A DNA stretch of 64,000 bases from an uncultured Alphaproteobacteria bacterium. GTDB lineage: Bacteria > Pseudomonadota > Alphaproteobacteria > RF32 > CAG-239. Under the pieces are notes generated by a model that made no database searches, had not been told where the DNA came from, and saw only the letters and a program-made list of their open reading frames with translations. Position 1 is the stretch's first letter. Every line of letters starts with the position of its first letter. The stretch covers positions 73,288 through 137,287 of the forward strand of contig CALXVZ010000002.1 of NCBI GenBank assembly GCA_944392235.1, read 5' to 3'. Position numbers and translations under genes: made by a program. Positions 30,618 to 34,545 of this stretch are shown here, piece after piece.

Positions 30618-31259
30618 CTAAAGACGTCCCATTCTTCTTTTCTGTTCCATAATTCGACGAGCCAGAACATTTTTTTGATGTTGAGCTCTAATATCTGAAA
30701 TAATATTTTTAGGAGCTTTCACTTTTTCCCCTTTTGCAATACTATCTACAATACGCTCTCCATTAGCTTTAACTGCTTTCCATTTTTCGTCATCACGTAT
30801 ATCCATAATACGTTCATCACCAATAGACAAAGGTACGCTCATATCAACATCTTTAAATCCAAACTGTTGTTCCAAAGCAACAATAATTCGTGGATCAGTT
30901 GTAACAATCATATCCGCACCGGAAGAAGTCATCGCCGCATATACACCGTTATTACGGCCCAAATACCCAGAGGCTATCTGCAGTTCTCCATTTTTCCTAA
31001 GATTAGTTCTTATATCCTCCGCCATATTTTTACAATTGCTTTTTCCTGTATTACTATCAATTCCGCCCAAAGAACGAGCAGGATCCTCAACCAGACGTCC
31101 AGATTGATCTCGACCAACTGCCACTCTTATTTTATGGGAATCATCTACATGTAAATAATCATTATCTTTAAATCCCATTTCCGTAAGAATTTCTTTCAAA
31201 GAATGAGGACGAAATCCCTCATTACCATAAATATAATCAAAAGCTGGATCATTAGACAT
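30618..31259 (-). CDS. conserved hypothetical protein (213 aa), co-directional with nrdG
   Basis: No motif confidently recognised. Confidence 0.35.
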   Translation of the reverse strand: MSNDPAFDYIYGNEGFRPHSLKEILTEMGFKDNDYLHVDDSHKIRVAVGRDQSGRLVEDPARSLGGIDSNTGKSNCKNMAEDIRTNLRKNGELQIASGYLGRNNGVYAAMTSSGADMIVTTDPRIIVALEQQFGFKDVDMSVPLSIGDERIMDIRDDEKWKAVKANGERIVDSIAKGEKVKAPKNIISDIRAQHQKNVLARRIMEQKRRMGRL

Positions 31260-31388
31260 CTTTTTTCTCCTCCCTAATTAAACATAATAAGAATATATAC
31301 GATTCTCAGCCACATTGTAAGAAAAAGCGCCATCATTTCTGTAAAATGACGACGCATGCAAATATAAGATTCTCAATAAAATAAGGCC

Positions 31389-32090
31389 TCATTTACGAAC
31401 ATCAAACACATCAAAAGATGTTTTCAAATATTGTAAAAGACCTTCATTTTCAACCAAAGCCAAGCATTGACTCTCAGTAGTATCTGTGTCAGAAGGAACT
31501 TTCCGATATTTTTGTAAATAGTATTCTTTAACCCCCATATTTTTCAAGGAGTCTGCTATTTTATAAATATCCTCAACAGATAAAAATCGCGGATCACAAG
31601 TTGTCCGACATTCAAAATGGATTCCAGAATCAACAAGGAGTTTCAAACTTTCTTGAACCTTGTATACATCTGCGATTCCCCCTGTTACTTCTTTATAATG
31701 CTTTTCATCAAAAGGAGCTTTAATATCAAAGCCCACCCAATCAATCAGATGAAGAACTTTTTGAAAACGAGTAGGATGATATCCTCCTGTATGAAGACCT
31801 ATCTGATAGCCCAAAGCTTTTACTTCATTAATAGCGTCAATCAATCCGTCTTGCACCAATGGTTCTCCGCCAGAAAAGACCACAGCATCCAAAACACCTT
31901 TTCTCTGATTTAAGAAATCAACAAACTTATGCCAAGCAATATCCGTATCGGCATTTACATCCTGAAGATGGACATTATGACAGAAAGGACAACGCCAAGG
32001 ACATCCCTGCATAAAGACAACAGCGGACATCTTATTCGGAAAATCGACGATACTGAATTTCTCAATACCGCCGATTTTAATAGGGTTCAT
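31389..32090 (-). CDS. nrdG: anaerobic ribonucleoside-triphosphate reductase activating protein (radical SAM)
   Basis: CPWRCPFCHN (CxxxCxxC) radical SAM motif, VFSGGEPL, and adjacency downstream of nrdD. Confidence 0.7.
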   Translation of the reverse strand: MNPIKIGGIEKFSIVDFPNKMSAVVFMQGCPWRCPFCHNVHLQDVNADTDIAWHKFVDFLNQRKGVLDAVVFSGGEPLVQDGLIDAINEVKALGYQIGLHTGGYHPTRFQKVLHLIDWVGFDIKAPFDEKHYKEVTGGIADVYKVQESLKLLVDSGIHFECRTTCDPRFLSVEDIYKIADSLKNMGVKEYYLQKYRKVPSDTDTTESQCLALVENEGLLQYLKTSFDVFDVRK

Positions 32091-32112: not shown

Positions 32113-32361
32113 TTATTCTGCCGCCAAAGCCAAAGTTTCATCTGCCTTGCAAGCACATTCACGAACTTCGCAACCATGAATAGCTTTTTCTTCGCAGAAG
32201 CATAATCTACTATTATATTCGCCTTTCTTACCAACATTAAATTCTGTAGTTGGACGAATATACCCCATAACTCTGGTATAAACTTCGCAACGTTGTCTTT
32301 CGGAATCATCCAACTTTACATCATCAATATTAATAATATTACTCATCGTTCTCCCTTTCAA
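32113..32361 (-). CDS. stand-alone glycyl-radical module corresponding to the NrdD C-terminus
   Basis: 82 aa with its own RBS (AAGGGAGA). Contains CEVYTRVMGYIRP, the RVxGY glycyl-radical motif that normally ends NrdD. Confidence 0.55.
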   Translation of the reverse strand: MKGRTMSNIINIDDVKLDDSERQRCEVYTRVMGYIRPTTEFNVGKKGEYNSRLCFCEEKAIHGCEVRECACKADETLALAAE

Positions 32362-32374
32362 TTAATATAATATA

Positions 32375-34486
32375 TTACGCTACTTCTTGCTTTTTTGCAA
32401 GCATTTTTAACTTTTCTGCCTTTTTTTCTTGATCACAGATCGGGCAAAATTCATGTTCACCAGCAATATAACCATGTTTCGGGCAAACAGAAAATGTCGG
32501 AGTAATCGTGATATAAGGCAAGCGATAATTAGCCAACACCTTTTTAATAAAGTCGCGGCAAACTTTTGCAGAGGAAATACGCTGATTCATATAGAGGTGC
32601 AGCACAGTTCCTCCTGTATATTTTGATTGCAATCTAGCTTGTAAATCTAGAGCTTCAAAAGGATCATCTGTATATCCAACTGGCAACTGAGAAGAGTTAG
32701 TATAGAAAGGAGCATCCGGAGTCCCTGCTTGAATAATACCAACATAACGTTTTTTATCTTCTCTAGCAAATCTTGTAGTAGCCCCTTCAGCCGGAGTAGC
32801 TTCAAGATTATACATATGCCCAGTTTCTTCTTGGAATTTCACTAATCTATCACGAACAAAATCTAAGAATTTCTCAGCAAAAGCCTGTCCCCAAACATCT
32901 GCAATATTATGTTCATCATTAGTAAAGTTTCTAATCATTTCATTCATACCATTAACACCAATAGTAGAGAAGTGATTACGAAGAGTTCCAAGATATCTTT
33001 TTGTAAATGGGAACAAACCATTATCAATCAAACGTTGAATAACTTTCCTTTTAATTTCCAAAGAAGTTCTTGCAATATTCATCAACTCATCAACTCTAGC
33101 AAAGAGTCCTGCTTCATTACCTTTATAAACATAACCTAATCTAGCACAGTTAATGGTAACAACACCAACAGAACCTGTCTGTTCAGCAGAACCAAACAAA
33201 CCATTACCACGAGCTAACAATTCTCTCAAATCCAACTGTAAACGACAGCACATAGAACGGATTTGCCCTGGTTTCAAAGAAGAATTCAAGAAATTCTGGA
33301 AATAAGGCAAACCATATTTTGCAGTCATTTCAAATAACAATTCAGTATTTTCATCTTCCCAAGGAAAATCCCAAGTCATATTATAAGTTGGGATAGGGAA
33401 AGTGAATGGACGTCCTTTAACATCACCACCCATCATAACATTGATATAGGCTTTATTAATCATAGCCATTTCTTCGCCTAAATCACCATATGTATAATCC
33501 TGTTCCACACCTGCAATTATAGGATGTTGATCACGCAAATCTTCAGGACAAACCCAATCAAAAGTAAAGTTTGTAAACGGAGTCTGAGAACCCCAACGAG
33601 AAGGAACATTAAGATTATAAATCAGTTCCTGCATACATTGTTCAACTTGTTCATACTTTAACTTATCTTTTCTAACATAAGGAGCCAAATAAGTATCAAC
33701 AGAAGAGAAAGCCTGAGCCCCAGCCCATTCATTTTGCAAAGTTCCCATAAAGTTAACCATTTGCCCAATTGCAGAAGATAAGTGCTTTGGAGCACCTGCT
33801 TCTACTTTACCTGGCACACCATTAAAACCTTCTCTTAATAAATTCTTCAAAGACCAACCAGCACAATAAGCTGCAAGCATACTCAAATCATGAATATGGA
33901 TATCACCATTTCTATGAGCTTCACCTACTTCTGCTGGATAAACATGAGATAACCAATAGTTCGCTGTAACTTTACCAGAAACGTTTAAGATTAAGCCTCC
34001 ATTAGAATATCCTTGGTTAGCATTTTCTTTAATACGCCAATCTAAATTTTCCAAATATTCATTAACAGAGCTTTCAACATCGATAACTGTTTTTCCATCA
34101 CCACGCATTCTATTTCTTTTATCTCGATACAAGATATAAGACTTAGCTGTTTTGAAATAGTTTGAGGATATTAAAACTTGTTCAACTACATCTTGAATAT
34201 CTTCCACAGAAGGCAAAGACTCATCAAATTTATGAGCTAAAATTTTCATAACTTGAGCTGTCAAAAGCCATGCATCATCATTATCAAATTCACCTGTAAT
34301 TTCACCTGCTCTAACAATAGCATTATAAATTTTATCACCATCAAAATCAGCAAGCGTTCCGTCTCTTTTAGTTATACTTTTAAACGGCAATTTATATTTT
34401 TTCACCGTTGGCATTTGCAACTCATTATTGGCCATTTTTTTATAAATCCCTTCGCTCAAATTTAACAAGTTCTTAAAATTCGTCAC
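32375..34486 (-). CDS. nrdD: anaerobic ribonucleoside-triphosphate reductase, large (catalytic) part lacking the terminal glycyl-radical segment
   Basis: ATP-cone (ITKRDGTLADFDGDKIYNAI) and class III RNR core. Ends after the Zn-ribbon CPKHG...CPIC without RVxGY. The track start at 34486 is GTG; ATG 34435 (MANNELQM, GAAGGGA RBS) is plausible. Confidence 0.85.
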   Translation of the reverse strand: MTNFKNLLNLSEGIYKKMANNELQMPTVKKYKLPFKSITKRDGTLADFDGDKIYNAIVRAGEITGEFDNDDAWLLTAQVMKILAHKFDESLPSVEDIQDVVEQVLISSNYFKTAKSYILYRDKRNRMRGDGKTVIDVESSVNEYLENLDWRIKENANQGYSNGGLILNVSGKVTANYWLSHVYPAEVGEAHRNGDIHIHDLSMLAAYCAGWSLKNLLREGFNGVPGKVEAGAPKHLSSAIGQMVNFMGTLQNEWAGAQAFSSVDTYLAPYVRKDKLKYEQVEQCMQELIYNLNVPSRWGSQTPFTNFTFDWVCPEDLRDQHPIIAGVEQDYTYGDLGEEMAMINKAYINVMMGGDVKGRPFTFPIPTYNMTWDFPWEDENTELLFEMTAKYGLPYFQNFLNSSLKPGQIRSMCCRLQLDLRELLARGNGLFGSAEQTGSVGVVTINCARLGYVYKGNEAGLFARVDELMNIARTSLEIKRKVIQRLIDNGLFPFTKRYLGTLRNHFSTIGVNGMNEMIRNFTNDEHNIADVWGQAFAEKFLDFVRDRLVKFQEETGHMYNLEATPAEGATTRFAREDKKRYVGIIQAGTPDAPFYTNSSQLPVGYTDDPFEALDLQARLQSKYTGGTVLHLYMNQRISSAKVCRDFIKKVLANYRLPYITITPTFSVCPKHGYIAGEHEFCPICDQEKKAEKLKMLAKKQEVA

Positions 34487-34496
34487 TACGAACGTT

Positions 34497-34545
34497 ATAC
34501 TACATATTGTATTAAAAAAGCATTAACACCTACAAGATATAGTAG
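34497..34545. promoter_or_regulatory. two 16-bp palindromes (ATACTACATATTGTAT, CTACAAGATATAGTAG) upstream of nrdD; NrdR-box-like operator candidate
   Basis: Centres 33 bp apart. 13/16 and 9/16 matches to the acaCwAtATaTwGtgt NrdR consensus. Confidence 0.3.

Follow-up and report, generated by a model that had tools for sequence, protein, structure and literature searches.

Where does an anaerobic ribonucleotide reductase carry its radical glycine when its gene ends before the codon for it? This question was raised by a locus in the 64-kb window analysed here (the whole stretch of 64,000 nucleotides from an uncultured Alphaproteobacteria bacterium, positions 73,288 to 137,287 of contig CALXVZ010000002.1). 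In this locus nrdD, encoding a class III ribonucleotide reductase (RNR), is followed by a small open reading frame (ORF) and by nrdG, the gene of the activase. The two-gene architecture of the class III RNR was near certain, and the locus probably encodes a naturally split class III (anaerobic) RNR made of two polypeptides.

The break between nrdD and the small gene

The features of the two genes are as follows.

32375..34435, minus strand: nrdD, predicted large subunit, 686 aa, likely ATG at 34435; ATP-cone, barrel and Zn-ribbon, without the glycyl-radical loop
33245..33250, minus strand: Cys-Cys pair in the finger-loop motif SMCCRL (from the translation), equivalent to SCCR of Thermotoga maritima NrdD
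32435..32485, minus strand: complete Zn-ribbon CPKH-x9-CPIC (from the translation), aligned to T. maritima NrdD residues 594-610 (CEDGH...CPVC)
32378..32434, minus strand: C-terminal tail of the large subunit, 19 residues, DQEKKAEKLKMLAKKQEVA; specific to split forms, consensus D-E-E-[KLI]-x-A-x-K
32347..32374, minus strand: spacer of 28 nt after the TAA stop, with the ribosome-binding site (RBS) AAGGGAGA at 32350-32357, 3 nt before the ATG
32113..32346, minus strand: predicted small subunit, a free-standing glycyl-radical domain of 77 aa with its own ATG at 32346 and stop at 32113-32115; Pfam NRDD positions 531-561 of 562
32263..32265, minus strand: codon of Gly28, the predicted radical site, equivalent to Gly621 of T. 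maritima NrdD

The mechanical nrdD ORF spanned 32375..34486, with a GTG at 34486 and 703 aa; homologues of 684-687 aa begin at a Met equivalent to the ATG at 34435. In Pfam the large ORF matched the ATP-cone (5.5e-22) and NRDD (7.2e-177), and in NCBIfam it matched NF006126 with 1111.6 bits (cut-off 548) and TIGR02487 with 468.4 bits (cut-off 326). The barrel, the finger-loop cysteines and the Zn-ribbon of NrdD were all present on this ORF, but an RVxGY motif on the same chain was not; the large and small ORFs combined held every NrdD element. The large ORF ended in ...TFSVCPKHGYIAGEHEFCPICDQEKKAEKLKMLAKKQEVA, with its TAA stop at 32375-32377, 19 residues past the complete Zn-ribbon. The absence of a C-terminal radical motif, reported in an initial annotation made from the sequence alone, was confirmed, and the large ORF's 120 closest homologues, at 82% identity or more, likewise all lacked R[VIL]xGY in their last 80 residues; they ended in ...CPICD(E/Q/K)EKKAEK...

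Both cysteines of SMCCRL, the counterpart of the SCCR finger-loop motif described for T. maritima NrdD (PMC4493059), were invariant in alignment A4, as were the four Zn ligands (C651, H654, C664, and C667), all of which lay in the large subunit. T. maritima NrdD is described as binding Zn through CxxxHx6CxxC, its Zn-ribbon being an insertion that follows the last barrel strand and precedes the radical-bearing C-terminal loop (PMC4493059). The initial annotation had assigned one ribbon cysteine to the small ORF; this has to be corrected, as all ligands belong to CPKH-x9-CPIC at 32435-32485 on the large ORF. Cys20 of the small ORF was also found in fused relatives (CEVWTRVMGY) alongside a full ribbon, and it is therefore not a displaced ribbon cysteine.

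The radical motif RVMGY, within CEVYTRVMGYIRP, was located in the next ORF, which has its own RBS (AAGGGAGA) and its own start (ATG 32346), in agreement with the initial annotation. The separate ORF thus stood, but not its length of 82 aa, which is that of the mechanical ORF from a TTG at 32361; from the ATG the protein has 77 aa (MSNIINIDDVKLDDSERQRCEVYTRVMGYIRPTTEFNVGKKGEYNSRLCFCEEKAIHGCEVRECACKADETLALAAE). Likewise, the distance of 13 nt given for the ATG is the distance to this TTG, and the ATG lies 28 nt downstream of nrdD. The small protein could be divided into a leader (residues 1-15), a core (16-48, ERQRCEVYTRVMGYIRPTTEFNVGKKGEYNSRL), and a Cys-rich tail (49-77). Gly28 was kept in at least 90% of 149 family members (alignment A3), and its equivalent Gly621 is described as the radical glycine of T. 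maritima NrdD (PMC4493059).

PF13597 was the sole Pfam match of the small ORF, with no other Pfam family at E<=0.01, and no dedicated model for the small protein was found in Pfam or NCBIfam release 20. The protein touched just the C-terminal ends of the full-length NrdD models (PF13597, TIGR02487, and NF006126), far under their cut-offs. No further copies of the small gene were found in the 64-kb window, and a phmmer search of the small ORF against the PDB gave chance matches only.

The NRDD profile was divided between the two ORFs at positions 1-534 of 562 (large) and 531-561 (small), and NF006126 at positions 3-653 (large) and 649-681 of 684 (small). The small ORF aligned to T. maritima NrdD residues 615-645, Gly621 included. 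The abutting profiles, the alignments with T. maritima NrdD, and the placement of the ribbon showed that the cut falls exactly at the junction of the Zn-ribbon and the Gly loop, which settles the mapping of the break that the initial annotation had proposed. In an AlphaFold2 model of the small protein built with 149 relatives (pLDDT 75), strands 24-26 and 29-31 formed a beta-hairpin with Gly28 between them, followed by a helix; the conformation of the radical loop is described as very similar across several glycyl radical enzymes (PMC4493059).

Conservation and distribution of the split

An early stop could also come from a pseudogene or from a sequencing or assembly artefact, with a nonsense or frameshift error cutting an ordinary nrdD short. 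Nothing beyond the early stop itself speaks for such an origin, whose probability is close to nil. A scan in which a single genome stood for each GTDB species picked up 28 species, without exception uncultured Alphaproteobacteria from gut or rumen. The orthologue check that the initial annotation had suggested gave the same split in 28 of 28 species, each with the Gly motif in a stop-to-stop segment of 81-105 aa downstream of a truncated nrdD. Four further metagenome contigs (L001-L004) carried nrdD (686 aa), a 75-aa gene, and nrdG. The stop, the spacer, and the separate start were kept in the 28 species, in these four loci, and in the window; the KGR-encoding RBS was kept in every clade locus, and the close homologues of the small ORF (n = 32) were all 49-98 aa in length.

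The ratio of nonsynonymous to synonymous substitution rates (dN/dS; Nei-Gojobori method, 31 distinct loci, dS about 1) was 0.085 for the small gene (leader 0.07, core 0.07, Cys-rich tail 0.16) and 0.036 for the large gene, with 0.16 for its 19-residue tail. Both genes, including the large-chain tail and the small-chain leader, are under purifying selection. That 28 independently assembled species and cultured bacteria with finished genomes show the same architecture, together with dN/dS values far below 1 on both parts and the conserved RBS, argues against an artefact, and the comparative data already refute that reading. The view of the initial annotation that the break is no simple frameshift was borne out by the stop, spacer, and start in 28 species, the varying frame, and the purifying selection, which speak against an assembly error as well.

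About half of the clade loci (e.g., L001) were in frame with a single stop codon between the ORFs, an arrangement in which stop-codon readthrough, ribosomal frameshifting, or protein splicing might still yield a fused protein. However, the ORFs stood in different frames in the window and in many relatives. In the window the frame offset was +1, and a stop located downstream of that of nrdD closed the frame of the small ORF. Across the clade, spacers measured 25-43 nt and the frame offset was 0, +1, or +2; since both vary, readthrough or frameshifting cannot be the conserved route by which the Gly loop is expressed. Spacers of the family ranged from a 4-nt overlap to 142 nt, each small ORF having its own RBS and ATG, and the tail of 19 aa and the leader of 15 aa leave no space for split-intein halves. 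A fused product is thus very improbable. The two-polypeptide class III RNR at the core of the initial annotation was supported by the conserved split, the break in the profiles, and the selection on both genes.

The split is not particular to this genome, as it was found to be widespread in bacteria and phages. A search of 1.84 billion cluster representatives with a profile of the small protein gave 4098 matches at E<=1e-3 and 828 at E<=1e-10, and the best 150 of the 4098 were all 49-152 aa long. A second search gave 7308 clusters at E<=1e-5, of which the best 120 were all 53-102 aa long. Among 148 retrieved representatives, 145 had a Met start, with no ribbon upstream. The retrieved proteins had in common the motif LxDxERQxCE(V/I)WTRVMGYxRPxxxFNxGKKxE after diverse leaders. 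Because of the Met starts and of this shared motif without an upstream ribbon, the small proteins are not contig-edge fragments of long NrdDs. The named carriers included the following.

Cupriavidus necator H16, megaplasmid pHG1: large protein 676 aa (WP_011154155); small protein 66 aa (WP_011154154), annotated 'nrdD'; then the activase (WP_011154153)
Bradyrhizobium barranii: large protein 678 aa; small protein 63 aa; then the activase
Sulfuricurvum kujiense: large protein 704 aa; small protein 58 aa; three-gene layout with ATGA overlap
Ralstonia solanacearum: large protein 685 aa; small protein 58 aa, 'hypothetical protein'; three-gene layout with ATGA overlap
Paracoccus denitrificans: truncated nrdD and adjacent small gene present; small gene unannotated in the plasmid table

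Further named small proteins were found in Undibacterium, Rubrivivax, and Burkholderiaceae. PA1920 of Pseudomonas aeruginosa, at 675 aa, is as long as a large subunit that lacks the radical domain. A tblastn search of plasmids and chromids gave 161 records, 132 of them from Ralstonia. In databases the small gene was often unannotated or labelled 'hypothetical protein' or as a second 'nrdD', and the large gene was named as if complete. The ATGA overlaps in Ralstonia, Sulfuricurvum, and the phage locus L048 are consistent with translational coupling. Cupriavidus, Paracoccus, Bradyrhizobium, and Ralstonia are facultative nitrate respirers or denitrifiers.

A census of the 80 best metagenome loci gave at least 57 split operons, 14 orphans, 9 loci cut by the contig end, and no fused form. 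Six metagenome loci had been candidates for a fused form and were rejected; all were split, with long stop-free overlapping frames in high-GC DNA.

Only two fused single-chain relatives were retrieved, from Actinomyces oris (L066, 659 aa) and Acidithiobacillus ferrooxidans (L067, 627 aa), and these were 63-64% identical to the concatenated proteins of the window. In both, the linker from ribbon to loop had 11-12 residues (CPRCAAEEPATIPRVCEVWTRVMGY). A tail of the 19-residue type was common to the large subunits of alpha-, beta-, and epsilon-proteobacteria and of phages and was not found in the two fused relatives; this tail (D-E-E-[KLI]-x-A-x-K...) and the small-chain leader (LxDxERQxC) are the derived pieces of the split forms. 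In a neighbour-joining tree of 52 large subunits, constructed without support values, the two fused sequences nested among split ones, to which they were up to 76% identical. These data would fit either an old fission with occasional re-fusion or several fissions; the nesting of the fused sequences and their short linkers hint at secondary re-fusion of an ancestrally split gene. Charge complementarity between a basic large-chain tail and an acidic small-chain leader was considered and rejected as a family-wide property: it held in the clade of the window, and over the family the median charge was 0 for the tail and -2 for the leader.

The radical domain as a probable separate subunit

According to the proposed mechanism, nrdD, the small gene, and nrdG would be co-transcribed, and the small gene would be translated from its own RBS. 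The ATP-cone, the Zn-ribbon, and a ten-stranded barrel bearing the Cys-Cys finger loop would come from the 686-aa large subunit. The 77-aa small subunit would supply the C-terminal loop that dips into the barrel in ordinary NrdD, bearing the glycyl radical at Gly28. NrdG would take a hydrogen atom from Gly28 of the small subunit, and the small subunit would dock in the barrel of the large subunit with Gly28 facing the finger-loop cysteine; the large-chain tail and the LxDxERQxC leader may stand in for the lost covalent link. In the single-chain enzyme, the buried Gly loop has to leave the barrel in a large movement to reach the activase (PMC4493059). If the split enzyme works as proposed, activation would have to be pictured anew, since the loop need not flip out of a covalently attached barrel, and oxygen-damage repair and enzyme regulation would also be seen differently.

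Comparison with single-chain class III NrdD (T. maritima, PDB 4COI and 4U3E; phage T4; E. coli; NF006126/PRK08270) showed that the ATP-cone, the barrel, the Cys-Cys pair, the Zn-ribbon, the Gly loop, and an adjacent NrdG are common to both. The locus of the window differed in having the Gly loop on a separate polypeptide, about 30 extra residues (the 19-aa tail and the 15-aa leader), and a 29-aa Cys-rich tail on the small chain. NrdD is described as an alpha2 homodimer whose one long chain bears its own glycyl radical (PMC5704485).

Known split RNRs are NrdA-a/NrdA-b of class I in Aeromonas phage Aeh1 and NrdJa/NrdJb of class II (PMC9669993, PMC5704485). In NrdJa/NrdJb, found in Pseudomonas aeruginosa and other gamma-proteobacteria, two adjacent genes encode the enzyme and the C-terminal module, a Cys-rich turnover domain, is separate, as it is here. 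Both the Aeh1 and the NrdJ splits concern another RNR class and another module, whereas in the window the detached piece would bear the radical cofactor itself. The Aeh1 NrdA split was caused by a homing endonuclease gene; unlike that type, no ORF lies between the halves here, which are 28 nt apart; in relatives the halves range from overlapping by 4 nt to standing 142 nt apart.

The small protein is also like the pyruvate formate-lyase (PFL) spare parts GrcA/YfiD of E. coli and Y06I of phage T4 in being a free-standing glycyl-radical domain with a short leader; Y06I is likewise phage-encoded, and the logic of replacing an oxygen-cleaved piece would be the same. In contrast to GrcA/YfiD, the small protein is homologous to the NrdD C-terminus, gave no match to a PFL radical domain in Pfam or NCBIfam at the thresholds applied, and has no full-length partner, the large subunit of the window and its clade lacking a radical domain of its own. 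In the window its enzyme has no other radical domain, so the small protein is expected to be an obligate subunit and not a back-up. The likeness to GrcA drawn by the initial annotation is thus apt as an analogy, and the orphan and phage-borne copies described below strengthen it. A 2026 review names the formate lyases as the only class of glycyl radical enzymes with known spare parts, with others yet to be determined (PMC13450708), and Andorfer et al. (2021) state that such proteins may exist for other glycyl radical enzymes (PMC8683613). A split class III RNR with its radical domain as a separate subunit appears undescribed as far as searched: no description of it or of an autonomous NrdD-type radical protein was found in the searched literature, which mostly left out subscription journals, so that prior notice is possible.

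Oxygen is reported to cleave the chain at the glycyl radical, and PFL damaged in this way is rescued by YfiD or by Y06I of phage T4 (PMC8683613, PMC13450708). The most likely benefit of the split would be economy, with the oxygen-cleaved part replaced by a cheap swap of about 60-80 aa in place of remaking about 760 residues. Orphan copies in phages may be spare or extra radical subunits supplied in trans. Carriers that alternate between oxic and anoxic conditions and the existence of phage-borne orphans give circumstantial support to a detachable radical chain.

In IMG/VR, 19 viral loci encoded the radical motif. A truncated nrdD stood directly upstream in two phage groups, and the remaining loci had no nrdD within the fetched 10-kb flanks. 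All phage copies considered here come from metagenome-derived contigs. Small genes lay among baseplate and sheath genes (L033), among small phage-like genes (L035), and beside T7-type tail and lysozyme genes (L062 and L063); chromosomal orphans were found after an autotransporter gene (L059) and adjoining pyruvate kinase (L061). Orphans made up about 1/6 of the 80 best metagenome loci, mostly in phage contexts. Six sampled orphans had phage-family neighbours: tail fibre assembly (L085), tail protein and reverse transcriptase (L096), reverse transcriptase (L104 and L116), rIIA (L117), and a phage family of unknown function (L099). When 50,697 GenBank phage records were searched by tblastn with phage-type small proteins, each query had a single weak match, in one case to a full nrdD of ANMV-1.

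Several side observations were made on these copies. Three orphans lay 0.6-1.8 kb downstream of a phage reverse transcriptase (L096, 3131-4285; L104, 3027-4247; L116, 3935-5380), a layout that resembles phages with diversity-generating retroelements; the L096 orphan is also beside a tail protein gene. The phage copies L047, L053, and L054, which belong to the IMG/VR loci with no nrdD in the fetched flanks, appeared degraded, with an in-frame stop within the motif (RVM*Y) at about 10001-10111 in L047 and a stop after the NYNP stretch in L053 (2956-3057) and L054 (9965-10066). In two IMG/VR phage contigs (L050, 6281-9958; L051, 7391-9958), the nrdD large ORF (in L050, 1226 aa from stop to stop) was interrupted by a pair of intein-like insertions, one following VPSRWG|C... 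and the other LYLGG|C...HNT. A separate 61-aa radical-domain gene came next, so that inteins and the split occur in one gene.

A different account of the split is neutral gene fission. The two chains would then assemble once, remain together, and work just as a fused NrdD does; the split, fixed through drift and passed on both vertically and by horizontal transfer, would serve neither repair nor exchange. The split RNRs of class I (phage Aeh1) and class II (NrdJa/NrdJb), for which no exchange function is known, are in line with this account, and so are the two fused relatives nested among split forms at up to 76% identity, which indicate that both states are viable. However, a small chain that is only a fixed structural piece would hardly account for the orphans, which lie apart from any nrdD and mostly in phages. 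Moreover, in organisms with alternating oxic and anoxic life, e.g., denitrifiers, this NrdD subfamily is predominantly split. Neutral fission is regarded as less likely but as a serious rival.

Several points weigh against a two-protein enzyme with an exchangeable radical subunit. The assembly of the two proteins is a prediction from sequence. Foldseek retrieved nothing meaningful from the PDB for the small-subunit model, and an AlphaFold2 model of the concatenated large and small proteins (21 rows, at least 82% identical) had a pLDDT of 46.7 and was unusable for docking. The advantage for repair is our inference, and the split could be selectively neutral. The Zn-ribbon, a proposed aid to the activase in acting on the Gly loop, lies on the other chain, and activation of the free small subunit may therefore be less simple than that of YfiD. 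No genome was established as holding an operon copy and an orphan copy together.

The rationale of exchange and repair and the redox role of the Cys-rich tail are put forward as hypotheses. A bolder joint reading, held only tentatively, would make the radical domain an exchangeable, consumable cofactor and the first spare-part or radical-carrier family outside PFL, with phage orphans plugging into or rescuing host NrdD during infection and, in lineages such as that of the window, a CxC tail serving as a redox shuttle that re-reduces the active site. The small-protein family offers concrete spare-part candidates, including those of the culturable C. necator H16, Paracoccus denitrificans, and Ralstonia solanacearum, and the phage-borne orphans suggest a new kind of auxiliary metabolic gene.

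The Cys-rich tail and the operon surroundings

The remaining features of the locus are as follows.

32116..32202, minus strand: Cys-rich C-terminal tail of the small subunit, CFCEEKAIHGCEVRECACKADETLALAAE; absent from the fused relatives and T. maritima NrdD
31389..32090, minus strand: nrdG, radical SAM activase, 233 aa, starting 22 nt past the small ORF; TIGR02495 (NrdG2) 206.2 bits, cut-off 131
31327..31355, minus strand: terminator-like hairpin of 13 pairs with a T run, closing the unit of nrdD, small ORF, and nrdG

The tail of the small protein in the window contained C49, C51, H57, C59, C64, and C66, of which C49, C59, C64, and C66 were conserved in the clade. Across the family, tails had 5-7% Cys, compared with 0.9% in leaders. 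A close Cys pair (mostly CxC) was present in 84 of 357 sequences, against 58 +/- 4 in within-tail shuffles, and in just 21 of 146 representatives at 50% identity. Among 81 distinct split pairs, a phylogenetically clustered sample, 37 carried the pair on the small tail and 11 on the large tail (e.g., ...QQACAC*); one had it on both tails, and 32 lacked it. Large-subunit tails with a close Cys pair were those of L056, L080, L088, L095, L100, and L106-L111. The near-exclusive placement on either the small or the large tail suggests a shared function. Many of the Cys-pair tails ended in AAE, AA, or VA.

Class I and II RNRs have C-terminal cysteine pairs, and the Cys-rich NrdJb domain is separately encoded (PMC9669993, PMC5704485). 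By analogy with these, one reading of the tail is that it may act as a redox shuttle; another is that it may bind a metal. The small protein as a whole might then be mainly a redox or metal-binding accessory acting through this tail, in the manner of NrdJb, with the radical motif secondary. The tail has five cysteines and is conserved in the clade, which would agree with this, as would a close Cys pair at the C-terminus of either subunit in 49 of 81 split pairs (of both subunits in just one) and the separate gene for the electron-delivering Cys-rich domain of the class II enzyme NrdJa+b (PMC5704485). However, the part strictly conserved over the family is the Gly-loop core and not the tail. 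C. necator, Paracoccus, and Bradyrhizobium had no close Cys pair on either tail, and the tail could be an added function. A mainly accessory role is thus improbable, and a radical-bearing subunit remains the preferred reading of the small protein.

The nrdG product also matched Pfam Radical_SAM and Fer4_12. A scan of the minus strand found no terminator-like site in either of the two gaps that separate nrdD, the small ORF, and nrdG. Just upstream of nrdD on the minus strand, two 16-mers resembling NrdR boxes were observed at 34530-34545 and 34497-34512, 33 nt apart from centre to centre. Their core, ACWATATNTWGT, occurred in these two places only in the 64-kb window, where about 0.35 chance matches would be expected for a pattern that was derived post hoc. 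Downstream of the nrdDG terminator, a 213-aa ORF (30618-31259, minus strand) had no Pfam or NCBIfam match at E<=0.01; its positional counterpart in related contigs, 209-210 aa long, was recorded with Peptidase_M15.

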